Shown: in pieces, positions 2,204-20,721 of the stretch
Numbering within the stretch: position 1 is the first letter of the stretch
How the letters are laid out: each line of letters begins with the position of its first letter
From: a virus
Taxonomy: Duplodnaviria; Heunggongvirae; Uroviricota; Caudoviricetes
IMG/VR virus record: IMGVR_UViG_3300033463_000016
Span: 1 to 61,994 of that record
DNA: 61,994 nt
Strand: one strand, 5' to 3'
Program-made: the position numbers and the translations under genes
The notes under the pieces: generated by a model
Seen by the model: the letters and a program-made list of their open reading frames with translations, nothing else
Told to the model about the DNA's origin: nothing
The model's database searches: none

Positions 2204-3670
2204 ATGGCTGTAACGAGTTCGGTGAGAACACACGATATATATGCGGGACAAAACGCTAATATTGCAATAAAGTGTTTGCAAGGCGAACAAGGCATTAAAA
2301 TGGCTGAATTTCACCTTAAAAACAGTGATGCTAATCACACAGCAGTAAATCTTACAGATGCGACAGTAGTTCTATATAATGGCACAAAGTCAGATGGAAC
2401 ACCTTGTTGGTCTGATTGTACTGTTTCAAGTGCGGCAAATGGCGTTGTTACTCTTACTCAGAATATTGGTATGACAGACGTTCCCGGTATAGTTAGTGGC
2501 AGAATTATAGTTTTTGCGGCAAATGGCAATATCCAGTTTAATGGAATCAATCTCGTCGTTAAGAATAATCCATCGTTGGCAAGCCTTTCAAATTCTCACG
2601 CTTTTCTTGCATTGCAAAATGCTTTGAATAAGGTTGAAGTGATAACCCCAGGTGGAACCATTACCGTTGATGATGAATTATCAACTGAAAGCGTAGACCC
2701 TGTTCAAAATAAGATTGTCACGGCGGCAATTAATCTTTTGACCTCAACAAAGATTGATTCAGACGATGCCGTAAAATTCGTGAATTTGGTTACAAATCCA
2801 GATTCAACCGCTCCCTCCGGTGATCCGGTCGCAAATTGCATATCGCCCGATACTGTTTATTGGGGAACCGTAAATAATGTAGGTTGTGCCGTTATCACAA
2901 TGAGTGGATCAAATTACAGAACACAATATAAGTTTTCAACTATGGGTAAGTTGGAATATAGAACAACACATAAGGATAATGGTGTTTGGGGTAGTTGGGG
3001 GAGTTGGAATGCTATCGGATCGACTGATAATATCCAAGACGAAGCCGTTACTCCTGCAAAATTAGATCGCGCCTATGTGGAAAAGAGCCAGACTATCGCG
3101 GGCGTTGATTTTCAAGACAATATCACCGCTACGGAACTTGCATCTGCACTTGCGTCAACTATGGTTTCAAATCACGGAATGGTTACGCACTCGGCAGAAA
3201 TCTTTATTGGAAGTACCGACAAAACTGCAAGCGAAACAGGAACAGATATAAGGGCATATCAAGTAAATGATAGGTACATAAATAAGTATAATGGTAAGAT
3301 ATGGTATTGTTCAAATGTTACGCTCGATACTTCATCAATTCCAAATAAATTTGTTTATACTTGGGCTTCTATTGGAAATTTATATAACTATCCTATTACT
3401 ACAACATACACGCTTCTTGCAACTGCTTGGAATAATGATAATGAGATTACATTAAGCACGTTGCCAACCATTGCCGCTGGTAGGACAAGGGTAGATGTTG
3501 ATTTTGGACAAACTGTTTACGATCAACTAATCTCCGATGGCTGCTCCGGATTGTGTGTGACTACCGATGTTTCCGGTGTATCGCCTGTATTTACTATGCA
3601 CGCATATGGTAATACTCCAACTGTTGATATTACCGTACAACTAACGCTATGGCATATTATTGACGCCTAA
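2204..3670 (+). CDS. Baseplate/tail fibre protein with BppU-like N-terminus
   Basis: AAGGAGG SD. N-terminus 'VNLTDATVVLY..TKSDGT' resembles BppU_N; 'VDDELSTESVDPVQNKIV' is a motif common in tail fibres. Confidence 0.55.
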   Translation: MAVTSSVRTHDIYAGQNANIAIKCLQGEQGIKMAEFHLKNSDANHTAVNLTDATVVLYNGTKSDGTPCWSDCTVSSAANGVVTLTQNIGMTDVPGIVSGRIIVFAANGNIQFNGINLVVKNNPSLASLSNSHAFLALQNALNKVEVITPGGTITVDDELSTESVDPVQNKIVTAAINLLTSTKIDSDDAVKFVNLVTNPDSTAPSGDPVANCISPDTVYWGTVNNVGCAVITMSGSNYRTQYKFSTMGKLEYRTTHKDNGVWGSWGSWNAIGSTDNIQDEAVTPAKLDRAYVEKSQTIAGVDFQDNITATELASALASTMVSNHGMVTHSAEIFIGSTDKTASETGTDIRAYQVNDRYINKYNGKIWYCSNVTLDTSSIPNKFVYTWASIGNLYNYPITTTYTLLATAWNNDNEITLSTLPTIAAGRTRVDVDFGQTVYDQLISDGCSGLCVTTDVSGVSPVFTMHAYGNTPTVDITVQLTLWHIIDA

Positions 3671-3687
3671 GTAAGAGAGGTGATATT

Positions 3688-4797
3688 ATGCCTACCGTAA
3701 AATGTTATGATAAATATGGGGTTGAAATAGAGCGTTTGACTCAGTGGGATATTAATGTCAGTTTGAAGATTTATGATTTCCCATATGATATTGCTCCGGT
3801 GTGTCATTTCGCAAGTAGATTTGATAAGACAGCCAAAACAGTAACTACCACACTTGATGGTACGACAGTATCAGTCAAAGTTCCCAACATTCTATTGAAC
3901 GAGAGTAAACCAATCAAAATATTCGTTTTCTTATATGATTCGGAAGAAGATACTGGAAGAACGATTTATACGATTGAACTACCTGTTTCACCAAAGCCAA
4001 GACCTGACGATTACGAATACAGCGATAATGTTGAAATTATCGAAATTACTGCTCTGAAAGCACGTCTTGAAGCGTTGGTTGCAGAAGCAGATAAAATGGT
4101 TAATGTAAAAATAGGCGAATTGGCTCTTGCTTATGATAACACTATTGCAGAGATCAAAACAGGTATTGCGGATGATGTTCATAATCTGAACCAACAAATA
4201 ACCAATGCTAATACCCATTTGATTTCAGAAATCCGTGAAAAGAAAACTCAATTATCTGATGAAATCCAAACTGCCGTCCAAACTCTCATAAACGGTATGA
4301 AAGATGGTTCTCCTAAAGGCACATTCAAAATCGCCACCGATTTGGAACATTCAGCTCCCGGACTCTATCTATTAGCAGACGAGCAAAATGAGAATAATGG
4401 ATGGGTTTACTATTGGGATGGTTCAGAATTATCTGCGAGAATCTTGTACTATGCGGGAATGATTATCAATCACGATACCATTACGTATAGTATGTTTACG
4501 GATGAGTTGAAGAAACAAAGTGTGGAAACGGTCATTTCTTATGTACTACCCGCAGAAAGTTGGGATTCGGGGGAACAAGAAATTGATATTTCAGAGGAAT
4601 ATACTGTAACCGAGCATACAAAGGTCGATGTCGATTTGAATAATGCTGCCTACAATCAATTGGTTGATGATGGTTGTGTCGGAATCTATATTGTAACACA
4701 AACCGAGGATAAAGATACATCATTGTCTGCTCGATATATCGGCAATGCTCCGAGTGCAGATATTACAATACAATTAACAATTCGTGAAACTGTTTGA
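3688..4797 (+). CDS. Tail-associated protein with coiled-coil middle; C-terminal domain paralogous to that of the upstream gene
   Basis: GAGGTG SD. Last ~90 aa align by eye with the C-terminus of 2204..3670. Confidence 0.55.
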   Translation: MPTVKCYDKYGVEIERLTQWDINVSLKIYDFPYDIAPVCHFASRFDKTAKTVTTTLDGTTVSVKVPNILLNESKPIKIFVFLYDSEEDTGRTIYTIELPVSPKPRPDDYEYSDNVEIIEITALKARLEALVAEADKMVNVKIGELALAYDNTIAEIKTGIADDVHNLNQQITNANTHLISEIREKKTQLSDEIQTAVQTLINGMKDGSPKGTFKIATDLEHSAPGLYLLADEQNENNGWVYYWDGSELSARILYYAGMIINHDTITYSMFTDELKKQSVETVISYVLPAESWDSGEQEIDISEEYTVTEHTKVDVDLNNAAYNQLVDDGCVGIYIVTQTEDKDTSLSARYIGNAPSADITIQLTIRETV

Positions 4798-4847
4798 ATG
4801 TCATAGTCGTTTGGCTATGGCATTTTTCTTTGATGGAGGTGATTAAA

Positions 4848-5318
4848 TTGAGTCACTTGACTGAAAACGACTTCAATGAAAAGTTGCAGAAAATTAAAGC
4901 CAAAAATCAACAGAAAGAGTACAAGCGTCAGCTTGAAGAAGAAAAAAGAAAAGGGCGTAAAGGTTCACATATAGAAACTAATAAACTATTTGCTGTTTAC
5001 CTATTCATCCTCTTAAATGCGATCGTTACATATTCTATGGTTGCTATGTGGCATTTCCAAGACCTATCGTATCTTGGTGTTTTGATTTCAGATATTGCCG
5101 CACAAGTTCTAATCTACGGAATCTATTGTATGAAAGCATTTAAGTCCAAACAGTCAGAGGAAGAATTGAAGTTTAGAAAAGAGAAATTTAGAGGTTCATT
5201 AGCAAACATTCTACAGGCGGGAGCCGATAGCATTCAGCCCGTTCCCGTGAATGGCAGCGTAGATAGTTTTGATGAGCCTACTGAGAGCAAGGAATCTTAT
5301 TATGAGGAGGAATCGTAA
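4848..5318 (+). CDS. Two-TM membrane protein (holin-like, lysis cassette)
   Basis: GGAGGTG SD before TTG 4848; two hydrophobic segments; sits upstream of the endolysin. Confidence 0.55.
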   Translation: MSHLTENDFNEKLQKIKAKNQQKEYKRQLEEEKRKGRKGSHIETNKLFAVYLFILLNAIVTYSMVAMWHFQDLSYLGVLISDIAAQVLIYGIYCMKAFKSKQSEEELKFRKEKFRGSLANILQAGADSIQPVPVNGSVDSFDEPTESKESYYEEES

Positions 5319-5725
5319 TGCTCAAAGGTATTCAAAATTTTTTGCAGTTCATTTATGACAATTGGACTACTATTACCATTATCATTGCTTTGTTAGTTGC
5401 TTTGTATGGTAAAATTAAATCTTTCTTGAAGAAGGACAAGAATGAGAAGATTGGCGCCGCAAAGGAACAGGCAAAAGAAATGATCCTAAAATGGGTAACT
5501 GCTGCGGAGATTGATTTTAGTTCTTGGTCAAAAGCGGGTGCTATTAAACGTGCGCAGGTTATCGAACAGGTTTATACGACATTCCCGATTTTGGCGACGT
5601 TTGCAAAGCAAGAAGAAATCATTGCTTGGATCGACGAAATCATTAATGATTCGTTGAAAGACCTCCGTAAGATTGTCGCGGAGAATCAGCCTAAAGACGA
5701 AGATGAATCTGAATCGGCTGAATAA
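5318..5725 (+). CDS. Putative holin (single N-terminal TM, LL-H-like)
   Basis: TAATG overlap with the previous gene; N-terminal TM 'WTTITIIIALLVALY'; 'AE..F.....G..KRAQV' pattern; adjacent to the endolysin. Confidence 0.55.
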   Translation: MLKGIQNFLQFIYDNWTTITIIIALLVALYGKIKSFLKKDKNEKIGAAKEQAKEMILKWVTAAEIDFSSWSKAGAIKRAQVIEQVYTTFPILATFAKQEEIIAWIDEIINDSLKDLRKIVAENQPKDEDESESAE

Positions 5726-5759
5726 GAAAATGTTAATCAAATTTTAATTTTATTTACAG

Positions 5760-5790
5760 AGATTGTCGCTTTATTGTGGCAATCTTTTTT
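5760..5790 (+). terminator. Rho-independent terminator-like hairpin
   Basis: AGATTGTCGC-N6-GTGGCAATCT (10 bp, 2 GU pairs) followed by a T run. Confidence 0.65.
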
Positions 5791-5814
5791 ATTAATCAGT
5801 AAAGGAGAGATATT

Positions 5815-7551
5815 ATGGCAAGTATGAATGGTAAAAAGGGCGTTGATATTTCATATGCTAATGGCAATATTGATTTGGCAAAAGTCAAAAACGCCGGATA
5901 TGATTTCGTTATGATTCGCTGTGGATATGGTTCTGACATCAAAAGTCAGGATGACGATCAGTTTATTTCAAACGTAGCAAAAGCCGAAAAATTGGGAATG
6001 CCTTGGGGTGTTTATCTATTCTCATATGCTTGTTCAACCGCATCGGCAAAGAGTGAATTAGCGCATATTGATAGACTCTTAAAAGCTGAAAAAGCAAAGG
6101 GTCATTATCCCACTATGCCTATCGCGTTGGACATCGAGCCGTCTAACTATGTTTCAAACAACGGTGGTTGGACAAAATCTAATCTGACAAACGTTGCTAC
6201 CATTGTTTTGGATGGTTTGGCAAAACTCGGCTATTATCCAATGATCTACACAGGATATTCTGAGTTGGACTGGATGCTTTCAGATCACGTCCGTAATGAT
6301 TTTGATTGTTGGTACGCACAATGGTTTACAAGTCCTTCGGATTACAAATACAAGAGATTGGGAATCTGGCAGTATGGTGGAGAAACCAATTATCTTGAAA
6401 GTAATAAGATTAATGGCGTTGGCGTAATCGACAAGAATAAGTGCTACAAAGATTATCCTGCGATAATCAAGAATGGCGGCTACAATGGATTCAAGAAATC
6501 AACTACCAATATTACAACAACTAATCCGTCAACTAATACCACTACTGATACAACAGTTACTAAGTCAACTGTAAAATATACTGCCGATACTGTTATAGCT
6601 CTTGCAAAGGCAGAAGTAGGCTATAAAGAAAAGGCAAGCAATTCTCAGTTAGATAGTAAAACCGCAAATGCTGGCGCAAATAATTGGACAAAGTATGCGG
6701 CTTACATCGATAAGAATGCCCCCGATTTCTACAATGGTAAAAAGAACGGTTTCGCTTGGTGCGATATTTTCAATGACTATATCCACATTATGGCGGCGGG
6801 TGACGTTGAAACCGCAAGAAAAGCACTGTATCAGCCTAAGAAGTCTACCGGCGCAGGTTGTTCATTCTCAGCTCAGTTCTTCCGCGATAATAATGCGTGG
6901 ACTGATAGAGGTAAGGGTACGCCTAAATTGGGCGACCAAATCTTCTTCGGAACCAAAGGTAATGAATATCATACTGGCATTGTCGTCAAAGTGGACAGCA
7001 ATTATGTTTATACTGTAGAGGGTAACAGTTCTGATATGGTCGCAGAAAGAAAGTATGCACTGAACGATTCTAAGATTTCCGGTTATGGTCATCCGAAATA
7101 TACAGGCACTTCTGCTGTTACTACAAGTCCGACAATTGTGACGACAACAACCAACACTGGTAAGACTGCGATTAAAGAAGTTCAGACCTGGCTAAACAAA
7201 ACCTACAAGTTCAATCTGACTGTCGATGGTGTCTATGGCGCAAAGACTAAGGCTGCTCTTGTTAAGGCTCTGCAAACTGAACTGAATAAGCAGACAGGGG
7301 CAAAACTTGTTGTTGATGGTGTATATGGCTCAAAGACTAATGCTGCTGTGTTTAATCTAAGTATTGGTTGCAAGGGCAATATCACCAGAGTGCTACAAGG
7401 TCTGTTAGTGTGCAATGGATATAGCACAAATGGTTTTGATGGTGTATTTGGTACGGGTACGTTCGCCGCTGTAAAGAGCTATCAATCAAAGAAGGGGCTA
7501 ACGGTTGATGGCGTCGCAGGAAAGCAGACTTTTGGAAAATTGTGTGCCTAA
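5815..7551 (+). CDS. Endolysin: GH25 muramidase + CHAP domain + C-terminal peptidoglycan-binding repeats
   Basis: 'GVDISY' and 'LDIE' (GH25); 'WCDIF...HTGIV...TVEGN' (CHAP Cys/His); repeated 'L.VDG.YG.KT' PG-binding units; Thr-rich linkers. Confidence 0.9.
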   Translation: MASMNGKKGVDISYANGNIDLAKVKNAGYDFVMIRCGYGSDIKSQDDDQFISNVAKAEKLGMPWGVYLFSYACSTASAKSELAHIDRLLKAEKAKGHYPTMPIALDIEPSNYVSNNGGWTKSNLTNVATIVLDGLAKLGYYPMIYTGYSELDWMLSDHVRNDFDCWYAQWFTSPSDYKYKRLGIWQYGGETNYLESNKINGVGVIDKNKCYKDYPAIIKNGGYNGFKKSTTNITTTNPSTNTTTDTTVTKSTVKYTADTVIALAKAEVGYKEKASNSQLDSKTANAGANNWTKYAAYIDKNAPDFYNGKKNGFAWCDIFNDYIHIMAAGDVETARKALYQPKKSTGAGCSFSAQFFRDNNAWTDRGKGTPKLGDQIFFGTKGNEYHTGIVVKVDSNYVYTVEGNSSDMVAERKYALNDSKISGYGHPKYTGTSAVTTSPTIVTTTTNTGKTAIKEVQTWLNKTYKFNLTVDGVYGAKTKAALVKALQTELNKQTGAKLVVDGVYGSKTNAAVFNLSIGCKGNITRVLQGLLVCNGYSTNGFDGVFGTGTFAAVKSYQSKKGLTVDGVAGKQTFGKLCA

Positions 7552-8139: not shown

Positions 8140-11100
8140 ATGCCTAATCAGATTATAGGTAGAATTTCTCCAGGCGCTTCGCCAACAGCGGAAGATACAC
8201 GTGTTTTTGATACTGAAACTGCGTTAAATAATTATTTGGCTTCACCACGAGCCAAAGCGGGTCAGGGTATAAAACTGCTCGACTCGACAAGTGGAAGATA
8301 TAAAGCATATATCATCCAAGGTACAGCAGGAAGTTTTGAAAAGACACCTATGGGTGCTGGTGATTATGTTGGTAATTCTCTACCATCTGTTGCCGATGGC
8401 GATCGTGATTTGATTTATTTCATCTATGATAGTGAAGATGATCTTTACAGACAGTATCGTTTTAATGGCACTAAATATGTACTTGTAGGTGGAAACTCTT
8501 ATGATAAGAGCCAAACATATACAAACACAGAGATTGATACTAAATTAGCCGATAAACAAGAGTCATATGTCGCAAGTTCACTGCCGATAGATGGTGATGA
8601 GAACACCGATTATTACATTGGCAACAGCCAAGATGGATTCGTTCATTATCGTTATTTTGGTGGACTTATTGATGAATTTATCGCCGTAGGCGGCGATTCT
8701 TATACAAAAGAAGAAGTAGATAATAAAATTGCATCAAAAGTTGTCTATTATTATTATCTCTCTTATGGAACCGCCATCGTAGAGGAAAACAACGAGCAAA
8801 TTGAAAAGAATAATATTTTACGCTTATGGAGATACACAGACCCAAGTAACGTCGGTGATACCACTGGCGAGGTTGGGGAAGTTGTCAAATGGATTGAAAT
8901 TCAAGGTGGCGGAAGTGGCTCTACGAGGGCTACAAATATGACATTTGAACGTGTCACCCCTGCTAATATTGTGACTTCCGCTGGCGCCGTAGAGTCAGAC
9001 GGCATTATCATTACTGCTTCTTTCTCTGATTATGAATCAGATGGTGGAGAAGCGGTATCGGCAACATATACCGTTTCGGTTGGTAATAAAGTCGTTGAAA
9101 CAGGTGTGGCTGTTCAGTGCAAAGATTCAAGCAATAATCAATTGTATGATGAAGATGAAAATCCAATCTATAATGTGTTTGATGTTACTCAATATTGTTC
9201 AAGTGGTCAACAGACTATTTCAATTGCAATTACTGATGAATATGGAAATATGGTTATCAGAAAATGGAATGTTGAAATAATTGATATTAGAATTGAAAGT
9301 CAATTCGATGATTCTTATTCAAGAGCAATTGGTTCTCAGATCAATTTTACATATAAACTTTTTGGTTCAACATCAAAAGTCGTACATTTTATTTTAGATG
9401 GAGTGGAGATCGGCACATTAACTACCACAGGAACAGGAGAAACAACTTATCCGATTGCTTCTACATATGCAACTTATGGAACACATTTCCTTGATTGTTA
9501 TGTTACTACAGTAGTTAATGGTACAACAATTTATTCAAATCATATCTATAAAGATATTGTTTGTTATGATGTGGCAGGTAGTGTTCCCGTTATCGGTAGT
9601 ATGTATAGATATGATTCCGATAGCCATATCGGATATGGAGTTGTTCGGATTAATCAATATGATACTTTAAATATCCCATATACGGTTTACGATCCATCTA
9701 CGAGTTCACCTACCGTAACACTATCTGTCGATGGAATGACCGTAAACACGTTGGAACTTTCTTCACATAGTAATGTTTGGGCGTTCAAGGGTAGTGAAAT
9801 CGGAAGTCATACGTTAATCATTTCTTGTGGCGCAACAAGTATAGAGATTGATGTTGATGTTATTGATTTAGGGTATGACATTGCTCCTGTAACAAGCGGA
9901 TTGGCTTTTGACTTTGATCCAACAGGCATCACTAATAGCAGTTCAAATAGACTTTGGACTGATGAGAATGATTCCAATGTCAAACTTTCTGTTTCTGAAA
10001 ATTTCGACTGGGATAATGGTGGTTATCAAATTGATAGTACAACGGGTGAAAGTTATTTCCTCGTTAAAGCTGGAACAAGAGCAACAATTTCATATAATCT
10101 TTTCGGTACAAATCCGAAATATGATGGTGCTGAGTTTAAAATTGTATTCAAGACTTCAAATGTAAGGGATGTGGAAGCTACATTTTTAAGTTGTCTTTCT
10201 GATAGTATCGGATTGAGAATGGACGTTCACTCTGCGATATTAGCAAATAGCACTAATATTCAGAATCCGTTATGGCTGCCATATAGCGAAGAAGATATTA
10301 TTGAGTTTGAGTACAATATCAATCCGAGCGTCAACGGTTTATCTTATAGACCATTGATTATGACATATGAAGATGGCGTACCTTTTAAGCCACTATCATA
10401 TACAAGTGGTACATTTAATTCTACGACCGGAGAATGGGATGGTGGTGCGCAATTGCATCAGACTACACCAGTTCCTATCACTATCGGTTCGGACGATTGT
10501 GATGTATATATTTATCGTATGAAAGCCTATAACACTTTCCTTTCAGATTCTCAAATACTCAATAACTTTATTGCTGATTCAAGAAATTCTGAAACGATGG
10601 TGAAAAGATATACGAGAAATCAGATTTATACTCAGGATAACAAACTTACACCTGAATCTGTTGCAGAGGCTTGCCCTAATCTTCGTGTTATCAAGATTTC
10701 GGCTCCATATTTTACTAATGATAAGGATGAAAAGGTTCCGGATACTACCATAGAATGTATCTATAAAAATGGTGATCCTATACTTGAAAACTGGATTGCA
10801 ACTGGTTGTAAACACTCTGGACAGGGTACGACATCAAATGACTATGGTTTCGCTGGTAGAAATCTATTACTTTATTTGAATGATTCTAATACTGTAATTA
10901 CTTTAGGTGATGAAGAAACCACAGTCAATAAAGTTGCATTAAGTTATGATAGACAAACACCAACATCAATTCCTACTAATGTTTTCAACATTAAAGTTAA
11001 TATCGCTTCTTCTGAAAACGCCAATAACGCTTTGTTGGCTAAACGATTCAATGATTATCTTCCTTACAAAATGCCCGCACAAAAGAGAGATAGCAGAGTC

Positions 11101-14100
11101 AAAAATACTATGGAATTCGTTAATTGTGTGGTATTTATTCAAGAAACTGCTGACAACGTAAATACACATAGAGAGTTTGCCGATAAAAACTGGCATTTTT
11201 ATGCTCTTGGCAATTTAGGAGATGCGAAGAAAACTGACTCAACAAGAGTGAATGATAAAAATGATCCTAAAGAATTTGTTGTTGAAATTAAGGATAATTA
11301 TAAACCAAATTCCGGTTTTAACACAGGAACGGATTCGTATCCAATCAGTTCTGGACAGTGGGTAGCGGGTAATTCTGCGTATGATTCTCTCTACAACAAT
11401 TGGGATACCTCTTTTGAGTTCCGCTACACAAAAGCAGAGTATGATCCAAAGAATAATATTACAAGCCCACAGGCGGAAGCTAATAAGCAAAAGTGGCGTG
11501 ATTTCTACGAATGGGTTATTACTTCATCTGATGCTAACTTTGTAGCACAACTTGGTAATTGGTTTATCGTTGATTCTGCTTTATACTTCTATGTATTTAC
11601 ACATCGTTATACTATGATTGATAACCGTGCTAAAAATACATTCTGGCATTGGAGCAAGGTTTATATAACCGAAGCAGAAGCCGCTGAATTGGGAGAAACA
11701 GAAGCAAGTTACTACACTGTAGATAATGCTAAAGCTGCCATCAATGAGGGCTATCGTTTTGAGATGTGGGGTTATGACTTCGATACTGCGCTTGGTATTA
11801 ACAACTCAGGTGTAATGAGTAAACAATACCGTTATGGTAGAGAAGATAGCGACTACAGAGAAGAAGGCGACTCAACATCTGGCTATCTTTACAATGAGGC
11901 GACAAGTGTATTCTGGTGTAGATTACGCGATTTAATGCCTTCAGAAATTGAGGGAATGTATAAGACTGTTGCCGAAAATCACGGTACAGCTTGGGATGCA
12001 GAACACTTCATCGAAGAATTTGATGAATGGCAAGCACAGTTCCCGGAAGAAATTTGGAGATTAAATTACGAAAGAGAATATACCCGTACATATCAATCTG
12101 GTACAGATAGATTTATGACCCAAATGATGCAAGGCAGGAAGAAATATCACCGTAGACAATGGGAACGCGATCAGGCTCCTTATTTTGGAACTAAATATGG
12201 ATTGCCGTATTACAAAAATACAGATCGTATTTCATTCAGATGTAATACTCCTATTTTTGAAGTTGATCCGAGTCGTGTGTTTGCTACTCAAGCGACCGCC
12301 AACACATATCTTTCATCTGCGAATGCGGCGGCAGAACAAAACGTTAAAATCAAGCAGCAAGATAACTCTTATAAGTTATATGTTATTAAATCAGTCAACA
12401 ATGCATTGACATATATTCCGATCGTTGAACCAAATTATGATTTAACAATCACACCATTCTCTGATATTTATTTGAATGCTGAATTTGGTAACGAGGGTGA
12501 AACAACTGAAAGAATTGCTATTAGAGCAAAAGCTGGACAATCATATACTATTGAATGCCCCGAAAACAGAAGAATGACAAGTACAATGATTAAAATATAT
12601 TGTGCTTCACGTATTCAGGCTTTAAGCGATTTATCTCCTTGTTATATTGAAGATAACGATTTCAGCAAGGCAAAGAAATTAAGAGAATTAATTATCGGTA
12701 ACGATACTCTTGGTTATAAGAGCTTTATTACTTCACTTACTTTGAGTAATAACCAAATCCTTGAAGTATTAAATATTGAGAATTGTAATACGTTTACAGA
12801 TCAATCGGTTGATTTATCTAATTGTGGTAATCTTGAAGAATTCTATGCTGAAGGAAGCAATATTACGGAAGTTGTATTTGCTAACTACGGAAAAGTGAAC
12901 ACCGTGGAAATGCCTAATACACTTGTAAATCTTACAATGAGAAATCTAAATAATCTTGAAGATAATGATTTTAGTTTACCAACATACAACACTATGCGCA
13001 ATGTTACTCTTGTTAATGGTGTTCTTGACACAAAGACTCTTATGGGTAATTTGAGTCCATACTTAACAACTCTGTATCTATCAGGATTTGATTGGTCATT
13101 CGGTTCTGTTGATTTTACTGATCCGTCAAACTTCTTGATTGAAAAACTTTATAATGTCAACAGTGTAACTCTAAAAGGAACTATTAGATTAGATAGAATC
13201 CCACAGAGATATGTAACCAAATATGCTGAAAAGTGGGGTTCTGATTTCCACATTGTAGGTACGGTTATTCCCGAATACAGTATTACTTTTATCAACGATG
13301 ATAAAACGGCAATTTTATCGAAGTCTGATAACACTACTCCATATGTGGAGTGGGTAGATGGAGAGAGTGCAACATACAATCCGATTACCGAAAATCTTGT
13401 TAATACGCCTACAAAAGCACAGTCAGACAAATATACTTATACATTTAGCCATTGGGCTGTATATGCAAACAATACTGTTGGTGCTGAATATACATTTGGT
13501 CGTGTATTATCGTCAAATATCACCCTTATTGCTGTTTATACAAGCACTTTGAGAACATTCACTGTTAATTGGTACACCGCTCCGGTGAATACAAATATTC
13601 TGTCAGGAGAATGGAACTCAAAGAACAATTTGGCTAATAGAGGCGAACCGCTACATACTGAAACAAACGTGCAGTACGGTTCGGAAGTATCTTATGATAT
13701 TGCTCAAAAGATCATTTGCACCAATGGTTCTTACGGCGGTATGGATTATATTGAAAGTTACTCATTCATCTCGTGGAATGACTCTACCGGATGTGTAACT
13801 GGAAATATGGATGTCTATGCTGTTTGGCGTTATGCGAAGATTTATAAGAGCAATGGAAACCTGATTCTTGAAGATGCTTTGAGCAACAGAAAGAAATTGA
13901 AGGATATGACATCTGCTGAAATCGCGGCTGTTTGTGCTAATGGTGAAGCAACAACATTCTTCGATGACAAAGATTACTTTGATTTCGTTATGGGTCACGA
14001 TTATACATTCTCTAATGTGGATCAATATGAAATCGTACCTCTCGGAGAAGAATTGCATCTTGATGGTATCACACCGGTTATTCCCGTAGATAGTCAAGGT

Positions 14101-15513
14101 CATCAATTCAAGTTATTCTCCGCTGATGCTCCTTCATTTACTATGGCAATTGATTATCAATTCTCAAACGATGTAAATGATTATGCTCCGGCTGATGAGA
14201 AAACATTAGTTTCTTGTTTCGCAAATCCAGATAACGGTAATGATGGCTTTGCTTTAAGGTATAAGTCAAACAAAGCAAATATTCTTTGGGGCGATAAAAA
14301 TCAGAATGTAGCAACTGAAAAGAATCGTGATATGGTTGTTTTACGTCATAAACAAGGTAGTGATGTATTATATATCTATGCTTTTAATGGTGCCGATCTG
14401 CAAGCAAATTACTATTCAAATAAAATTGTAACTGCAACTTTGACTCGCACATCATTCAGTGATACCGATGCTCCGCTTGTATTTGGTGGAATTGCTGAAT
14501 ATGATTCAGGAAATCATACATATACCGCCACTGATACATCTACCTATATAGGCGCAGGTGTGATCTTCTGGTGTAAGATATGGTATGATGATCTTGGCGA
14601 TGCAGTTGCAAGAAAACTTGCTTCTTGGACACGCGACGAAGATCGTCAAGAATATTTCGAGGTACAATTGGATTCTGCTGGAACACTTTTCGGTAGCCCA
14701 TATGTTATGACTGGCACTTCGACAAATGCAAGTGCATCGTTTATGTCTAACAACCTATTGAGATACCTGCATCAAATGAATAGCGGTAACTACAATAGAG
14801 GTGGTTGGGGTGGTGACACAACATCTACCGCAACATATGAGGCATCGATGCACTACTTTATGCAGAACAAGTTCTATCCTGCGATACCTGATGAAATAAG
14901 GAATCTTATTGTTCAAGTTAAAGTGCCTTCTACTGTTGGTAATAGTTCATCTACACTTGCCAATTACGATAGTTACACTTACATTCCTTGTTTGAGGGAA
15001 GTCACACCTGCTAATGATGGTACAAGTAAGAACGAACCATACTTATCAGAAGGTTCTTGCATCAGTTGGAACACAACTCAATACCGTAGAATATGTTTCC
15101 GAGATGTTATTACGTTGGATACCTCTTTACTTGCTAATGGCAACCAGAAATTCACTGGCTCGTCAGAACCTATTTTTGGTCAGAATAAAGGCTTCTATGA
15201 CGCTGACAGTAATCCAAATGGCGTTAGGGAGTATGATATTTGGTATATCGATAACAACACGGCAAGTAGGATTTATCTATCCGCAGCAACTCTGAGGAAG
15301 AAGAACATCACGCCTACCGTTTGGATTACTCAGGGAACTGAGCGTATCGGCGGTTGGGTAGGCGCCAATAACTATTTCTTGCGTTCTCCGTATGCCGGTG
15401 CCACTAACTATTTCTGGGGTGTGGACTACAGTGGAGTTACCAACTACAACAGCGCTTACAACTGGAATGGCGTGCGTCCCTGCTTCTCATTCTATGCTAC
15501 TATTACTCAATAA
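8140..15513 (+). CDS. 2457-aa DGR target protein (receptor-binding/adhesin-like): LamG-like, CotH-kinase-like, LRR-like and B-repeat-like regions, C-terminal C-type-lectin-fold (DUF6273-like) variable domain
   Basis: GGAGGTG SD. VR occupies codons 2407-2451 ('YFLRSP...GVRPCF'). 'DNRAKN' and 'YDFD' are CotH-like motifs; 'LEVLNIENC/LEEFYAEGS' are LRR-like. Confidence 0.85.
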   Translation: MPNQIIGRISPGASPTAEDTRVFDTETALNNYLASPRAKAGQGIKLLDSTSGRYKAYIIQGTAGSFEKTPMGAGDYVGNSLPSVADGDRDLIYFIYDSEDDLYRQYRFNGTKYVLVGGNSYDKSQTYTNTEIDTKLADKQESYVASSLPIDGDENTDYYIGNSQDGFVHYRYFGGLIDEFIAVGGDSYTKEEVDNKIASKVVYYYYLSYGTAIVEENNEQIEKNNILRLWRYTDPSNVGDTTGEVGEVVKWIEIQGGGSGSTRATNMTFERVTPANIVTSAGAVESDGIIITASFSDYESDGGEAVSATYTVSVGNKVVETGVAVQCKDSSNNQLYDEDENPIYNVFDVTQYCSSGQQTISIAITDEYGNMVIRKWNVEIIDIRIESQFDDSYSRAIGSQINFTYKLFGSTSKVVHFILDGVEIGTLTTTGTGETTYPIASTYATYGTHFLDCYVTTVVNGTTIYSNHIYKDIVCYDVAGSVPVIGSMYRYDSDSHIGYGVVRINQYDTLNIPYTVYDPSTSSPTVTLSVDGMTVNTLELSSHSNVWAFKGSEIGSHTLIISCGATSIEIDVDVIDLGYDIAPVTSGLAFDFDPTGITNSSSNRLWTDENDSNVKLSVSENFDWDNGGYQIDSTTGESYFLVKAGTRATISYNLFGTNPKYDGAEFKIVFKTSNVRDVEATFLSCLSDSIGLRMDVHSAILANSTNIQNPLWLPYSEEDIIEFEYNINPSVNGLSYRPLIMTYEDGVPFKPLSYTSGTFNSTTGEWDGGAQLHQTTPVPITIGSDDCDVYIYRMKAYNTFLSDSQILNNFIADSRNSETMVKRYTRNQIYTQDNKLTPESVAEACPNLRVIKISAPYFTNDKDEKVPDTTIECIYKNGDPILENWIATGCKHSGQGTTSNDYGFAGRNLLLYLNDSNTVITLGDEETTVNKVALSYDRQTPTSIPTNVFNIKVNIASSENANNALLAKRFNDYLPYKMPAQKRDSRVKNTMEFVNCVVFIQETADNVNTHREFADKNWHFYALGNLGDAKKTDSTRVNDKNDPKEFVVEIKDNYKPNSGFNTGTDSYPISSGQWVAGNSAYDSLYNNWDTSFEFRYTKAEYDPKNNITSPQAEANKQKWRDFYEWVITSSDANFVAQLGNWFIVDSALYFYVFTHRYTMIDNRAKNTFWHWSKVYITEAEAAELGETEASYYTVDNAKAAINEGYRFEMWGYDFDTALGINNSGVMSKQYRYGREDSDYREEGDSTSGYLYNEATSVFWCRLRDLMPSEIEGMYKTVAENHGTAWDAEHFIEEFDEWQAQFPEEIWRLNYEREYTRTYQSGTDRFMTQMMQGRKKYHRRQWERDQAPYFGTKYGLPYYKNTDRISFRCNTPIFEVDPSRVFATQATANTYLSSANAAAEQNVKIKQQDNSYKLYVIKSVNNALTYIPIVEPNYDLTITPFSDIYLNAEFGNEGETTERIAIRAKAGQSYTIECPENRRMTSTMIKIYCASRIQALSDLSPCYIEDNDFSKAKKLRELIIGNDTLGYKSFITSLTLSNNQILEVLNIENCNTFTDQSVDLSNCGNLEEFYAEGSNITEVVFANYGKVNTVEMPNTLVNLTMRNLNNLEDNDFSLPTYNTMRNVTLVNGVLDTKTLMGNLSPYLTTLYLSGFDWSFGSVDFTDPSNFLIEKLYNVNSVTLKGTIRLDRIPQRYVTKYAEKWGSDFHIVGTVIPEYSITFINDDKTAILSKSDNTTPYVEWVDGESATYNPITENLVNTPTKAQSDKYTYTFSHWAVYANNTVGAEYTFGRVLSSNITLIAVYTSTLRTFTVNWYTAPVNTNILSGEWNSKNNLANRGEPLHTETNVQYGSEVSYDIAQKIICTNGSYGGMDYIESYSFISWNDSTGCVTGNMDVYAVWRYAKIYKSNGNLILEDALSNRKKLKDMTSAEIAAVCANGEATTFFDDKDYFDFVMGHDYTFSNVDQYEIVPLGEELHLDGITPVIPVDSQGHQFKLFSADAPSFTMAIDYQFSNDVNDYAPADEKTLVSCFANPDNGNDGFALRYKSNKANILWGDKNQNVATEKNRDMVVLRHKQGSDVLYIYAFNGADLQANYYSNKIVTATLTRTSFSDTDAPLVFGGIAEYDSGNHTYTATDTSTYIGAGVIFWCKIWYDDLGDAVARKLASWTRDEDRQEYFEVQLDSAGTLFGSPYVMTGTSTNASASFMSNNLLRYLHQMNSGNYNRGGWGGDTTSTATYEASMHYFMQNKFYPAIPDEIRNLIVQVKVPSTVGNSSSTLANYDSYTYIPCLREVTPANDGTSKNEPYLSEGSCISWNTTQYRRICFRDVITLDTSLLANGNQKFTGSSEPIFGQNKGFYDADSNPNGVREYDIWYIDNNTASRIYLSAATLRKKNITPTVWITQGTERIGGWVGANNYFLRSPYAGATNYFWGVDYSGVTNYNSAYNWNGVRPCFSFYATITQ
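15358..15491 (+). repeat. DGR variable repeat (VR)
   Basis: 134-bp ungapped match to 16426-16559 with 14 mismatches, all at TR adenines. Confidence 0.97.
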
Positions 15514-15523
15514 CTTTACAACA

Positions 15524-15571
15524 AAGTCCCTACAAATCTGGCGGTAACTCGCTTACCGCTTGTAGGGGCTT
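15524..15571 (+). promoter_or_regulatory. Hairpin/cruciform downstream of VR (DGR target-recognition element and/or terminator)
   Basis: Outer stem AAGTCCCTACAA/TTGTAGGGGCTT (one GU pair), 5-nt bulge, inner stem GCGGTAA/TTACCGC with a 5-nt loop. Confidence 0.65.
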
Positions 15572-15596
15572 ATTAAATACGTGACAGTTATATTCA

Positions 15597-16400
15597 ATGA
15601 GTGTAATAACAGCGAAAAGACATACAGCAAAGAGCGAGTTTGAGCATACATTCTCGCTCTTTTATGCTGATTCGAGAAGATTACTATCTAAAGTCCCTAA
15701 AAGACGTGAAAGATTTATTTGTCCAAAAATTATTTGGCTTAATAATTCTATTTACAACGACTTGATGATAGTGCAGGAGATTTTATTTACAAAGCAAAAA
15801 GATAAAAAGATTGAGAAGCAAAACCGAATTAAAAACGCATTAGAGAAAATTGCGGAATTGGAAAAACCTATTATGGTATATTCAAATATTATGGCAATGC
15901 CTTTTGATAAACAGTGTAATTGGTGTAAAACACTTAATAAGGAAATTGCCTTATTAAATGGAATGTTGGAAAACGAGTCTGATAAATCCAACTGTAGAAT
16001 TGAAGTATTAGATTGGGAAAAGATACACAAATTTAAAGCCGTGAATAATATGTGTTCTTTACATAGATATACTCACGGCAAAGCCGTTAGAGCGGTCAAT
16101 ATATTCGATAATGGAGATACAGCGTTGGTTATCGAATTAATTGATGAAGCATTTTATAACGTCATTAAGGCAAATTCCTCTTTTCCAAATAATAAAGAGG
16201 AATATGAAATGAGGATCAAGCGGATTGAAAGGGCGTTACAATGCTTAAATGAAATTCAAAGACCTATGTTATCTTACTTTAATGTTATGAAATATAGCAA
16301 TAGAGTTATGAGAGAATGGTCAGATATTTTGAATAAGGAAATAAAGCTATTAAAAGGTTTGCAGAAGTCCGATAAAAAGCGGTTCTGCAAACTTTCTTAA
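15597..16400 (+). CDS. avd: DGR accessory protein, Avd-like, tandem two-domain form (267 aa)
   Basis: Lies between VR and TR; basic and helical; 'MSV...KR' start and 'EI.LLKG..KSD.KR' end; internal duplication with 18/46 identity, ungapped. Confidence 0.8.
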   Translation: MSVITAKRHTAKSEFEHTFSLFYADSRRLLSKVPKRRERFICPKIIWLNNSIYNDLMIVQEILFTKQKDKKIEKQNRIKNALEKIAELEKPIMVYSNIMAMPFDKQCNWCKTLNKEIALLNGMLENESDKSNCRIEVLDWEKIHKFKAVNNMCSLHRYTHGKAVRAVNIFDNGDTALVIELIDEAFYNVIKANSSFPNNKEEYEMRIKRIERALQCLNEIQRPMLSYFNVMKYSNRVMREWSDILNKEIKLLKGLQKSDKKRFCKLS

Positions 16401-16425
16401 TATACACACTGGTTAAATCCTATAC

Positions 16426-16559
16426 GTAGGCGCCAATAACTATTTCTTGCGTTCTCCGAATACCGGTAACACTAACAATTTCTGGAATGTGAACAACAAT
16501 GGAGTTACCAACAACAACAACGCTAACAACTGGAATGGCGTGCGTCCCTGATTCTCATT
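16426..16559 (+). ncRNA. DGR template repeat (TR)
   Basis: Non-coding near-copy of VR with 42 adenines and 17 AAY triplets in the VR reading frame. Confidence 0.97.
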
Positions 16560-16871
16560 TTGTAGTAGCTATGTATTAAGAGTGAATTGAGATTAGGCGA
16601 TCTTTTGGATTGTCCGATATTTTCATAGGAATTGAGAAGGAGGATTTGACCATCTATTTGAAAAAATAGTAAATAATATGTTTTTGTGTTTAATGAAAAC
16701 TCGCTGTTGTGGCGATCCGTTACGGTTGAGTGGAACGCTTCTTGCATAGATAAGAGTTTGCTGAACTTATTTTTATACTCAACTATGTTAGCCGGTTACA
16801 GCAAAATATACAAAGGCTAAACGGAGGAAAAGACTAAATAACTAAATACAATACGAAAGGAGGTAGTATTT

Positions 16872-18161
16872 TTGAATCAAAAAGAAAGAATCAGAGCAAG
16901 GATTGAAAGAGATAAGGCACGTCGGGCTGCCAAGAAAGCTCTACGCAATGAGAAAACAAAAGCTGACGACTATGATAAAGTTATGACAATGCAGAATTAT
17001 TATGGTGCTTTGAAGAAATGTCGTAAGGGCGTTATGTGGAAAGGAAAGCCACAGAAGTATTGTCAAACTTCAAACACACAGGTTACAGGAACTTTGGAAC
17101 ATATAGATGATTATGAGTTGCCGCCATTAGAGAATACTTCTCAAATTACTTTATATGAACGCGGTAAGAAAAGAATCATTACACCAATCCAATTTAGTGA
17201 TCGAATGACTCAACGTGTCCTCTGCGATTACTCTTTGATTCCGATAATTCAGCCAACCTTGATTTACGATAATGGTGCAAGCACTGAAGGAAAGGGAACT
17301 GATTTTGCTCGGAAAAGAGTTGAAATGTTTTTAAGGGACTCCATTAAAGAATACGGTGAAGATTTTTACATCTTATCATTTGATTTCAAGAGCTTTTTCG
17401 ATAGCATCCCACATTCGACCTGCTACAATGTTCTGAATGAATATTATTCTGACAAAAGAATTGTTGAACTAATTATTGAGGTGGTTAAGTCTTATCAAAG
17501 ACCAGAAATATTAAAGATAGAAGATGATTCAAAAAGAACACTCCTGTTAGATTTACTTGAAAATAACCAAATGAAGGGAATCTGTCTTGGTAGCCAAATA
17601 TCTCAAATACTCGCTTTGGTTGTGCCTAATCAGTTGGATCACTACATAAAGGACAAGCAACGTATGAAGCGGTATGTTAGATATATGGATGACGGAATTA
17701 TAATTCATAAGAATAAAGAAGTTTTACAAGAATTGTATGAAGGTATGAGAGATGTTTGTAATAATTTAGGATTAACGTTTAATGAAAAGAAAACGAAAAT
17801 TGTGAAAGCTACAAAAGGCTTTTCTTTCCTAAAGATCAAATACCGTGTTGTTGGTTCACGTCTTGTAAAGACCCTGGCAAGGAGTGGGATAGTTAGAATG
17901 AGGAGGAAACTTAAAAAGTTTAAGATCAAAGTTGATAATGGCGTAATGAAATTGGACGATGTGTATAATTCTATGCAATCGTGGTTGTCACACGCCAAGT
18001 TAGCCCAATCCTATCATACGGTCAGGAGTATGTTGAAATTATATGATGAATTATTTGATGGTTATAAAATAACTAAGAAATATTTTAAAAAGGAGGACAA
18101 CAATGAGATATTACAAAGTGATAAATGGGCTGAATTTCGTTGGGATAGCTACGACGACTGA
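16872..18161 (+). CDS. DGR reverse transcriptase
   Basis: AAGGAGG SD with TTG start; 'DFKSFFDSI', 'GICLGSQISQ' (GxxxSQ, typical of DGR RTs) and 'YVRYMDD'; no intron maturase or endonuclease extension. Confidence 0.95.
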   Translation: MNQKERIRARIERDKARRAAKKALRNEKTKADDYDKVMTMQNYYGALKKCRKGVMWKGKPQKYCQTSNTQVTGTLEHIDDYELPPLENTSQITLYERGKKRIITPIQFSDRMTQRVLCDYSLIPIIQPTLIYDNGASTEGKGTDFARKRVEMFLRDSIKEYGEDFYILSFDFKSFFDSIPHSTCYNVLNEYYSDKRIVELIIEVVKSYQRPEILKIEDDSKRTLLLDLLENNQMKGICLGSQISQILALVVPNQLDHYIKDKQRMKRYVRYMDDGIIIHKNKEVLQELYEGMRDVCNNLGLTFNEKKTKIVKATKGFSFLKIKYRVVGSRLVKTLARSGIVRMRRKLKKFKIKVDNGVMKLDDVYNSMQSWLSHAKLAQSYHTVRSMLKLYDELFDGYKITKKYFKKEDNNEILQSDKWAEFRWDSYDD

Positions 18162-18846
18162 ACTGCGAAAAATTCAGTTACAACATAATATTTTAATCTC
18201 CTGTGCAGAACAAGATGCAGAGTGTGTCCAAATTGAAAATGACTATTATCACGCTGGTTGGATGAAATCTGTTAGAGAAGATATTGGAGCAGTATTCGCG
18301 GAAGTAATTGAGATTGATAAAGAAGAATACGATGAACTTATTGAAATGATTGAGCGTGATGAGGAAATTGAACCATATCCCGAACCAGAACCGGAGCCTG
18401 AACCTGTTCCCGATCCTGAACAGGAGGATATAACGGTTGCTTATGCTAAGAAGCTCAAATTAAAAGAAATGAGTAATACTTGTGAAAATAACATATTTGC
18501 TGGAATTGATGTGGTTCTTTCAGACGAAGAAACGCATCATTTTTCTTTGACCGAGTACGATCAGCTAAATATATTCAAATTAGAAACATTAGCTCGTTCC
18601 GGCGAACAAGTATTGCCTTATCACGAAGATGGTGAACTATGCAAGTTTTATCCCGCCGCAGATATTATCACTATTGCCGATGCTGCTACTCAGTATATTA
18701 CATATCACACCACGTATTTCAATAGTTTGAAAGCATATATTAATTCGTTGCGTTCTGTCAATACGATAAGCAGAGTGACCTATGGTATGGAAATCCCCGA
18801 AAAGTATCAATCAGAGGTTTGGAAAGAGATTAATCAATATGAATAA
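18103..18846 (+). CDS. Tail-fibre-associated/assembly chaperone-like protein (DUF4376-like C-terminus, PE-repeat linker)
   Basis: AAGGAGG SD inside the RT 3' end; PEPEPEPVP linker; 'HFSLT..DQ.N...YHEDGE.C..Y' C-terminal domain. Confidence 0.55.
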   Translation: MRYYKVINGLNFVGIATTTELRKIQLQHNILISCAEQDAECVQIENDYYHAGWMKSVREDIGAVFAEVIEIDKEEYDELIEMIERDEEIEPYPEPEPEPEPVPDPEQEDITVAYAKKLKLKEMSNTCENNIFAGIDVVLSDEETHHFSLTEYDQLNIFKLETLARSGEQVLPYHEDGELCKFYPAADIITIADAATQYITYHTTYFNSLKAYINSLRSVNTISRVTYGMEIPEKYQSEVWKEINQYE

Positions 18847-19261
18847 TCTTAGAACTATCGGTAAATATCTAATCCTCTTAATTGTTGGTGGATTTGTTTA
18901 TTGCGGAATTGAACTTCTTTGGCGCGGTCATACACATTGGACGATGTTTATAGTAGGTGGAATATGTTTTATATTCTGCGGGAGTATCAACGAATTATTT
19001 GAATGGGATATGGCTTTGTGGAAACAAATGCTATGTTGTGCAATCGGAATAACTCTTATTGAGTTCTTTTCCGGCTTTATTATCAATGTAATATTTGATC
19101 TTGGCGTTTGGGATTACAGTAATCTTCCGCTTAACGTCATAGGTCAAATATCTTTGCCGTTTACTGTATTTTGGTTTTTCTTATCGGTTATCGCCATAGT
19201 GCTTGATGATTATTTGAGGTATTGGTGGTTCGGTGAAGAAAAACCGCGTTACAAATTGTGA
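18839..19261 (+). CDS. Multi-pass membrane protein (putative ABC-transporter-permease/CmpB-like family, frequent in Firmicutes phages)
   Basis: 'IELLWRGHTHWTM..VGG', 'EF.SG', 'WDYS..P.N..GQI.LPF'; ATG overlaps the upstream stop. Confidence 0.7.
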   Translation: MNNLRTIGKYLILLIVGGFVYCGIELLWRGHTHWTMFIVGGICFIFCGSINELFEWDMALWKQMLCCAIGITLIEFFSGFIINVIFDLGVWDYSNLPLNVIGQISLPFTVFWFFLSVIAIVLDDYLRYWWFGEEKPRYKL

Positions 19262-19518: not shown

Positions 19519-20670
19519 TTATAGGTCATCAAGTGTTTTAACGGCAAGGTATCCTTCAGCTTCCGCAAAGTGAATATACGTATCGAGAGTAATCTGCACA
19601 CTTGCGTGACCTAATAATGTTGAGATAGTTTTAATATCAACTTTCTTTCGGAACAATCTGTTTGCAAAAGTATGCCTCAATGAATGCGTTGATCCTTTGT
19701 TTAATTTTGTATTTTTGACAATCCTGCGAAATGTGCGATCATATTGTTGTGGTGCAAGGACTCCCCCATTTTTAGCACAGACAATATATTCACTATTAGG
19801 ATGTTCATCAAACATACGTTGCAAGGCGCATTCAGCCATTTCGTTCAGTGGAACCTTACGATAGCCGGAATAAGTTTTCGTTGTCATAGCAATGGTTTCA
19901 TATCCGGTTGCATTTCCCTCTGAATCACGTGTCTTGACTGTTTGCACGTTTTCGCGGATATAAAGAAGATGGTTATCTTTGTCCCAATCTGATTTTTTTA
20001 ATCCAACAATTTCGCCACGTCTTGCTCCTGTGTTCAACTGTAAGATATAAGCGTCGCCATAAAGATATTTAGGCGTTTCAGAGTTTGGATATAATCTTCT
20101 GCATTCTTCTATAATTAACCGAGCTTCATTCTCATCATACCAAACCATTTCTTTTTTGGGGAATGTTGATTCTGCTGGCATTATCACGCCTTCCATTGGA
20201 TTCTTGGCTATGTCATTTTGACTTAATGCGTGTTTGATAACCATATTAGTTCCATCGTATGTTTTCTTAACTCTGGAATACGAAAGACCCTGCCTTTTAA
20301 TATCATTCAGCATCTTCTGAATATCGTTGGTTGTGATTTCAGAAATTCGCAAAATACCGATATGGGGGAATATTTGATTTTTGAATGTCCCTTCGAGTGT
20401 ATCATAACTCGATGCTTTCATTGTTGTCATTTTGTAAGTAACAAGCCATTTCTTTGCGTAGGTTTCAAAAGAAGTCGTGACGGGATCAATATGAGAATCC
20501 AAATCAAATTTATTCATTTGTTTTTGAACTTCCATTTTTGTAGTCCCAGAGAAATAGATGACTTCCGGCTTACCATTCGACTTATATCTGCCGGTATGGA
20601 TTCTTCCATAAAATTTTGACCCACGCTTGTAGATGCTGCCTGTACCCTTTGGACGCCTTTTGTTTGCCAT
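19519..20670 (-). CDS. int: Tyrosine recombinase (phage integrase)
   Basis: AAGGAG SD before ATG 20670; 'LNTGARRGE', 'HSLRHTFA' and 'LGHASVQITLDTY' give the catalytic R/HxxR/H/Y residues; N-terminal arm-binding-like region. Confidence 0.95.
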   Translation of the reverse strand: MANKRRPKGTGSIYKRGSKFYGRIHTGRYKSNGKPEVIYFSGTTKMEVQKQMNKFDLDSHIDPVTTSFETYAKKWLVTYKMTTMKASSYDTLEGTFKNQIFPHIGILRISEITTNDIQKMLNDIKRQGLSYSRVKKTYDGTNMVIKHALSQNDIAKNPMEGVIMPAESTFPKKEMVWYDENEARLIIEECRRLYPNSETPKYLYGDAYILQLNTGARRGEIVGLKKSDWDKDNHLLYIRENVQTVKTRDSEGNATGYETIAMTTKTYSGYRKVPLNEMAECALQRMFDEHPNSEYIVCAKNGGVLAPQQYDRTFRRIVKNTKLNKGSTHSLRHTFANRLFRKKVDIKTISTLLGHASVQITLDTYIHFAEAEGYLAVKTLDDL

Positions 20671-20721
20671 AATAAGCACTCCTTTATAATTAGAATATGT
20701 AAAAACAAGTGATTATTCTGG

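Follow-up and report, generated by a model that had tools for sequence, protein, structure and literature searches.

Can Avd, the accessory protein of diversity-generating retroelements (DGRs), exist as a double-length chain, and how could such a chain work where the known example, from Bordetella phage BPP-1, is a homopentamer of single bundles? The question is raised by an open reading frame (ORF) at 15597..16400 (+), with an ATG start and the stop codon included, which encodes 267 amino acids (aa) in a stretch of viral DNA (Caudoviricetes) of 61,994 nt, IMG/VR record IMGVR_UViG_3300033463_000016, here named the window in its full length. An earlier note on this DNA had read the ORF as a tandem two-domain Avd fusion. 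The analysis presented here indicates that it is very probably a tandem two-bundle Avd; in the sources, such proteins are called "hypothetical protein".

The ORF belongs to a complete DGR that spans positions 8140-18161 and has the gene order target with variable repeat (VR), avd, template repeat (TR), spacer and reverse transcriptase (RT). All 14 mismatches between TR and VR fall at adenines of the TR, which has 42 of them, and a locus with an RT and a TR/VR pair differing only at TR adenines is a DGR. Since the VR lies upstream, the TR and RT lie downstream, and the mismatches are adenine-specific, the avd-type ORF occupies the usual accessory-gene slot of a DGR, beside the TR and RT and downstream of the VR-bearing target. 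The adenine-specific mismatches mark the VR as having undergone retrohoming in the past.

A word-indexed search for relatives of the protein yielded 30 clusters (90% identity); in 26, the length is 264-276 aa. Twenty-five of the 30 matches made up the family alignment A1, from which the short P0014, P0019, P0028 and P0030, and also P0004, were left out. The gapless match between two segments quoted in the earlier note was recovered on the translation, with 18 of 46 positions identical between residues 77-122 and 209-254. BLASTP of one half against the other gave 21/54 identities (E 3e-9, for a single comparison), and the halves are offset by 132 residues, the same distance as the 396 nt between the copies of a 26-nt direct DNA repeat at 15936/16332. 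When a profile of each half was built from 25 family members, the two aligned in hhalign over 118 columns (8-126 against 8-125; probability 97.9%, E 5.5e-13), indicating that the repeat is real and spans the whole domain rather than the fourth helix alone. The protein is also about twice as long as a canonical Avd, as had been claimed: the Avd-type chains it matched have 107-115 residues, and BPP-1 Avd is given as 128 aa in Wu et al. 2018 (PMC5758913).

The AlphaFold2 model of the whole chain (25-sequence alignment; mean predicted local distance difference test score, pLDDT, 90.1; predicted template modelling score, pTM, 0.87) contains two four-helix bundles. The N-terminal bundle covers residues 14-123 (helices H14-30, H35-61, H68-98 and H103-123) and the C-terminal bundle residues 140-262 (H140-165, H174-192, H200-230 and H235-262), with a linker of ~15 residues whose blocks have pLDDT values of 92-93 in this single-chain model. 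The best PDB matches of the whole model all fell on the C bundle (residues 146-262), namely 2gsc (Z 15.6) and 2rld (Z 15.4). The C half matched BPP-1 Avd, 4dwl_D, with Z 13.7 and a root mean square deviation (rmsd) of 2.3 A over 107/107 residues; the next entry had Z 11.5. Because one domain can fill the match list of a whole model, the N half was folded separately. Modelled alone (22 sequences, pLDDT 79.8), it had 4dwl_D as its top structural match (Z 13.3, rmsd 2.3 A, 105/107 residues), followed by 2gsc (Z 13.2) and 2rld (Z 13.1). Against the N half, Z was 11.4-12.6 for the Avd chains of the bRT-Avd-RNA complexes 8ub8, 8ub7 and 8ube, and 11.0 or less for unrelated bundles. Avd-family chains took the first six places in the match list of the N half and the first three in that of the C half, with 105-115 of their 107-115 residues covered. 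A 4DWL-like four-helix bundle is therefore found in each half taken alone, and not in one half only.

Used alone, Foldseek found nothing at E <= 0.001 in either PDB or BFVD; its relevant rows were selected first on probability and TM-score and afterwards on VIA Z. Among them, BFVD contained single-bundle "Avd-like protein" models of 129-131 aa (TMt 0.77-0.79), and a full-length two-bundle counterpart was not found in that database. The best or joint-best structural matches (Z 13.1-15.6) were 2GSC (Xcc0516) and 2RLD (BT_0352), which belong to the 23S rRNA intervening sequence (IVS) or "S23 ribosomal protein family". These proteins differ in being single bundles with no sequence-model match and no DGR link in these results, so the likeness to the S23-like family (PF05635) is one of fold only.

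Fold is insufficient on its own, because helical bundles score high by chance, and the case for an Avd combines fold, profile homology and cassette position. Several results weigh against this identification. By the structural tool's own caveat, a Z of about 13 can be reached by chance for unrelated helical bundles. PF22296 (bAvd-like) had no match at E <= 1 in the window protein, its halves or the 25 family members, and neither did PF05635, at E <= 10 for the protein and its halves and at E <= 1 for the 25 members. NCBIfam gave no relevant match for the window protein, and a profile search of PDB sequences with A1 gave 0 matches at E <= 10. The window protein itself matched phrog_3206, "Avd protein of DGR", weakly (E 0.0069) and only in its C half, at residues 186-264. 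A tblastn search of a phage GenBank collection gave no match.

The link in sequence to known Avds is provided by the family. Thirteen of its 25 members matched phrog_3206 at E <= 0.01 (best 2.1e-9), and an exhaustive profile search retrieved single-bundle relatives (P0167, P0171 and P0175; 136-144 aa) that match phrog_3206 over their full length, with E from 4e-8 to 9e-11. In hhalign, these single-bundle relatives aligned both with the N half (98.4%, E 7e-15, 1-127 against 1-126) and with the C half (98.8%, E 1.2e-16, 13-133 against 13-133); a homologue search with P0175 alone had found 2 proteins only. Both halves are strongly basic, as Avds are: their isoelectric points (pI) are 9.41 and 9.49, with a net charge of +8 each, and across 25 family sequences the pI is 9.28 +/- 0.33 for N halves and 9.12 +/- 0.87 for C halves, close to the Avd average of 9.5 +/- 0.7 reported in Wu et al. 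2018 (PMC5758913). A generic helical phage protein that happens to lie beside an RT, as the lack of curated Pfam or NCBIfam matches and the chance scores of helical bundles might suggest, is hardly credible when Avd-family chains top the structural lists of both halves with near-full coverage, profile homology to phrog_3206-type Avds reaches 98% and the VR-avd-TR-RT position is invariant. The proposal of a tandem two-domain Avd is thus supported by the fold of both halves, their homology to each other and their profile match to single-bundle Avds.

How widespread double Avds are, a point raised with the original proposal, was surveyed in proteins, viral contigs and genomes. The exhaustive profile search found 360 representatives (50% identity) at E <= 1e-3, 159 of them at <= 1e-10 and 87 at <= 1e-30; among the best 150 of the 360, 94 are 240-300 aa long. 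In IMG/VR, 23 loci carry a relative, on contigs of up to 164 kb, and each match covers residues 1-261 or more in one frame. An RT homologue lies 530-600 nt downstream on the same strand in 23/23 of these loci. In 22 of them, a TR lies between avd and RT and pairs with a VR located where the upstream gene ends, the 23rd having no upstream DNA for a VR; the repeats are A-biased, with 380 of 417 mismatches at TR adenines summed over the 22 loci, several of the 23 being near-duplicates. Species-representative genomes contributed 8 further loci, from Ruminococcus sp. YE282 and from gut metagenome-assembled genomes (MAGs), which are labelled Ruminococcus, Clostridia, Eubacteriales, Clostridiales, Gastranaerophilales and Treponema. 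The RT is downstream in 7/8 genome loci, and in the eighth the contig ends at avd. Judged from these homologues, the tandem Avd appears to be a widespread and conserved form.

Most RTs linked to a tandem Avd have a 20-24-aa insertion before the motif G(I/L)xLGSQ (positions 17491-17565 in the window, RT residues ~207-231), and the insertion is absent from 3/3 RTs linked to a single-bundle Avd. It was rejected as a marker of tandem Avds, being absent also from the tandem-linked L015, L016, L023 and L029.

The same loci bear on whether the 267 residues form one chain. It is very improbable that the length is an artefact of merged adjacent avd genes, or that the ORF is translated or processed into two Avd-sized proteins. 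Such a reading could draw on ~130-aa N-only or C-only proteins, since the profile search also returned proteins of ~115-145 aa that match one half or the other, and on the mention, in Wu et al. 2018 (PMC5758913), of one DGR that carries a pair of avd genes. Nine of ten half-length proteins examined come from contigs of 517-1968 bp and one from a 7.5-kb contig, and their clusters are small (1-6 members), one of them also including a 275-aa member. N-only proteins stop at varying points within helix 4, P0129 and P0113 had no viral loci, and the C-only proteins gave an alignment too divergent for finding loci. These half-length proteins were read as truncated or frameshifted gene calls. What decides against two products is that the frame is uninterrupted in 31/31 related loci from independent assemblies with 30-78% identity (residues 1-261 or more in 23/23 viral loci, and likewise in 8/8 genome loci) and that no internal Met is conserved at the domain boundary in the family alignment. 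The protein is thus encoded in one piece; post-translational cleavage would be compatible with the sequence.

The relation between the two halves was addressed with a tree of halves. It combined four single-bundle Avds with 92 full-length representatives, which remained of 93 proteins of 255-300 aa after exclusion of one with a half <110 aa. The 92 N halves all grouped together (support 0.953), as did the 92 C halves (0.909), and the four single-bundle Avds fell outside both clades, so that one duplication, older than the diversification of the family, is indicated. The sequences point to one old internal duplication of a phrog_3206-type single-bundle Avd as the origin of the tandem form. The word "fusion" in the earlier note holds in that two Avd domains share one chain, but is a little misleading, since an internal duplication is better supported than a merger of two different genes.

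The phrog_3206-type single-bundle Avds (P0167, P0175 and P0171, and the loci L032 and L033) are sequence relatives of both halves. They share an MSV..KR N-terminal tail with the N half and a K.D..R C-terminal tail with the C half, and differ in having one bundle and 134-145 aa. Their family comprises 132 clusters at E <= 1e-5. On the viral contig L032, a TR-sized gap and then an RT, 39% identical to that of the window, come after the single-bundle avd. In this contig, two DGR-type RT genes, at 2274-3482 and 4864-6018, flank the single-bundle avd within 2274-6018, and the avd match in both L032 and L033 starts with Ile, which is not a standard start codon.

Using 107 single-bundle relatives from this sister family as the ancestral reference, 63 conserved columns were defined, of which 5 are kept in both halves, 11 in the N half only, 10 in the C half only and 37 in neither. 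The set retained only in the N half consists of the tail residues M1, S2, V3, K5, R8 and S11 and the loop P34-K35-R36; the set retained only in the C half includes A192-N193, P197, R206 and the C-terminal K257, D259 and R262, in agreement with the list of invariant positions. R8 is present in 97% and R36 in 99% of the 92 N halves, and the C half has lost both motifs. Such complementary retention looks, at the sequence level, like the pattern expected of subfunctionalisation after duplication. The covalent "pseudo-dimer" of the earlier note is right as to two linked Avd bundles and understates their divergence: because the halves keep complementary ancestral motifs and are non-equivalent, the chain is better named a covalent pseudo-heterodimer.

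The comparison of the halves also bears on an unlikely alternative, in which one bundle, the better-conserved C bundle, makes a classical five-fold ring and the other is a module appended outside the ring that has taken on a new role, for example additional contacts with RNA or RT, or regulation. The C half is indeed more conserved (mean pairwise identity 0.55, against 0.43 for the N half, in 25 sequences), scores higher against Avd-type structures and holds the phrog_3206 match of the window protein; moreover, 37/63 ancestral columns are lost from both halves, and the losses differ between them. The N half, however, retains the ancestral N-terminal tail, which is the most strongly conserved, and the P-K-R loop, both lost in the C half; the classical functions thus look shared out between the two halves instead of residing in one. 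Both also stay basic, and no full-length member has lost its N half since the single old duplication.

Compared with BPP-1 Avd (4DWL; 8UB7/8UB8/8UBE; PF22296), each half of the window protein has the same four-helix bundle, and the protein lies at the same point of the cassette, with the VR-bearing target gene on one side and the TR and RT on the other, and is likewise basic. It differs in having two non-equivalent bundles per chain and 267 instead of the published 128 aa, so it is not a small single-bundle protein of ~110-130 aa, and in lacking a detectable sequence match to PF22296. Linked in pairs, its bundles cannot add up to a ring of exactly five, much as the earlier note had argued, and the architecture of the RT-Avd-RNA complex would differ from that of BPP-1, in part by logical necessity and otherwise by structural inference. 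Wu et al. 2018 (PMC5758913) describe avd genes as "of similar length", with a pair of them in one DGR. A double-length or tandem Avd was not found described in the literature searched, a search that left Supplementary Data 5 of Wu et al. 2018 outside, and the tandem Avd is apparently an undescribed conserved form. It very probably descends from an Avd and, by analogy, would work like one; departing in the feature "small single bundle", it is regarded here as a variant of Avd.

The role of the BPP-1 protein is described by Handa et al. (bioRxiv 10.1101/2023.10.23.563531): the RT is rendered competent when Avd contacts the RT's N-terminal extension and takes hold of a spacer RNA stem-loop, bRT touches two of the five Avd protomers and the Sp stem-loop all five, and a pentamer-forming protein fused to the C-terminus of Avd leaves activity intact. 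The window RT has a conserved, very basic N-terminal extension. In the spacer (alignment A7, 12 loci), RNAalifold predicted 18 pairs in three helices, 16 of them with compensatory changes; the core GAGAAGGA is invariant, and TGAGAA is the complement of TTCTCA at the 3' end of the TR. This arrangement is reminiscent of the BPP-1 Sp RNA with its template:primer duplex and stem-loops, and by that analogy the spacer would act as a cis-acting DGR RNA. With a basic RT extension and conserved spacer motifs and helices, a BPP-1-like ribonucleoprotein is plausible.

The tandem Avd is very probably made as a single 267-aa chain of two diverged bundles, in the single reading frame kept since the duplication, and by analogy with BPP-1 it would bind two partners in such a ribonucleoprotein, the basic extension at the N-terminus of the neighbouring RT and the structured RNA of the spacer that follows the TR. 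The bound RT would become competent for adenine-mutagenic cDNA synthesis, and the mutagenic cDNA would rewrite the C-terminal VR of the 2457-aa tail protein. By the same analogy, the tandem Avd would be required for cDNA synthesis.

Which assembly the linked bundles would form is a matter of structural reasoning. The most favoured one, reached purely by inference and with a chance somewhat below even, would be built of five chains with ten bundles, the N bundles and the C bundles each closing into a five-fold ring and one ring stacking on the other. It is preferred because the ancestral ring interfaces would be preserved, and it fits the report of an active pentamer-protein fusion to the C-terminus of BPP-1 Avd. 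Against it, the fixed packing of the two bundles (pTM 0.87) could equally mean that they pack side by side as in a ring.

Second after the stacked rings, and somewhat unlikely, comes an even-numbered single ring of two to four (or five) chains, in which 4, 6, 8 or 10 N and C bundles would alternate. Such a ring would offer RNA bases crevices of two types between its bundles, and the N-terminal extension of the RT could dock on a covalently joined pair of bundles. The single-chain model places the bundles confidently (pTM 0.87, linker pLDDT 92-93), and the lower confidence of the N half modelled alone (79.8) suggests a real interface between the N and C bundles. The BPP-1 RT is reported, in the same preprint, to contact exactly two adjacent protomers, and the termini should lie at the same end of an up-down bundle, so that the 15-residue linker could reach a neighbour. 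The even ring would, however, need a curvature other than the five-fold geometry of the single-bundle proteins 4DWL, 2GSC and 2RLD (chains A-E).

Beyond the geometry of the ring, the tandem protein could be a naturally asymmetrised Avd, in which the tasks of a homopentamer protomer are split between two linked bundles, and in which the number of bundles and the RT:Avd:RNA stoichiometry are unlike the 1:5:1 of BPP-1; we consider the arguments for and against this evenly balanced. The division of tasks, for which the balance is just as even, would set the N-terminal tail and P-K-R loop of one bundle against the AN..P..R loop and C-terminal tail of the other.

The features of the cassette are collected in Table 1. 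The target protein has a Pfam DUF6273 (PF19789) match at residues 353-393 of its last 400 aa (E 1.5e-9). Beginning 11 nt past the target stop codon, the sequence at 15524-15570 is predicted to fold into a hairpin with a 12-bp outer stem, an internal loop and a 7-bp GC-rich inner stem. Its minimum free energy is -15.7 kcal/mol against -4.84 +/- 1.88 for 200 shuffles (z -5.78), none of which was as good. Target-recognition hairpins have been described for DGRs, and this one could be either such a hairpin or a terminator.

Table 1. Features of the DGR and its tandem avd gene in the window.
Feature	Position	Strand	Basis
DGR target gene, 2457-aa phage tail-type protein, VR at C-terminus	8140..15513	+	ORF; VR inside gene
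VR	15358..15491	+	134-nt direct repeat of 16426-16559, 90% identity
Strong hairpin 3' of target gene stop	15524..15570	+	Folding against shuffles
Tandem two-bundle Avd (very probable), 267 aa	15597..16400	+	ORF, fold, profile homology
N-terminal Avd bundle, residues 1-133	15597..15995	+	Half-alone model, structural match, hhalign, motif retention
C-terminal Avd bundle, residues 134-267	15996..16397	+	Structural match of residues 146-262, hhalign, motif retention
TR, 42 adenines	16426..16559	+	Direct repeat with VR
TR-RT spacer, 312 nt, conserved non-coding RNA region, three covarying helices, invariant GAGAAGGA core motif	16560..16871	+	12-locus alignment and RNAalifold
DGR reverse transcriptase, 429 aa, TTG start, basic N-terminal extension	16872..18161	+	Pfam RVT_1, E 4.7e-19

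Two ORFs, at 18103-18846 and 18782-19261, come after the RT gene and overlap its end; the first (247 aa) has a weak tail-fibre match (phrog_1348, E 3.2e-11) and the second (159 aa) matches phrog_20274 (E 7.6e-38). A tyrosine integrase gene (phrog_1, E 1.3e-65) is located just downstream of the DGR at 19519-20679 (-). The region 21446-61767 contains the phage's own replication and nucleotide-metabolism genes, for DNA polymerase, primase, helicases (one of them DnaB-like), NrdD, ThyA (thymidylate synthase), RNA ligase, polynucleotide kinase, tRNA nucleotidyltransferase and a DNA methyltransferase, and the phage also encodes an endolysin. The window is part of the large genome of a rumen phage.

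DNA of the window is present in bovine gut metagenome runs, among which no RNA run is listed; four runs were examined as assembled contigs. A protein look-up placed its Avd on contigs of up to 171 kb. In two runs that contain the window, assembled contigs stop or start inside the VR and TR (15361-15387 and 16429-16455). Coverage of 16454-16567 is raised several-fold by the many additional contigs that also contain the conserved repeat end, and a second, diverged avd copy was seen in one run (X1) of the same sample, with 29 differences in 170 nt.

Avd is essential for DGR reverse transcription, and a single system, the BPP-1 homopentamer, provides what is understood of its role. Non-equivalent covalent bundle pairs are a natural experiment that could reveal the Avd surfaces, and the number of bundles, required by the RT and RNA. 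DGR surveys would score cassettes with a tandem Avd as Avd-less, because Pfam and NCBIfam miss them. A single-chain two-bundle Avd would also offer a different, possibly simpler scaffold for the DGR mutagenesis tools that are reportedly being installed in E. coli. If the reading as an asymmetrised Avd is true, this clade would have a second architecture of the DGR reverse-transcription machine, one that would show which surfaces are needed once per pair of bundles.

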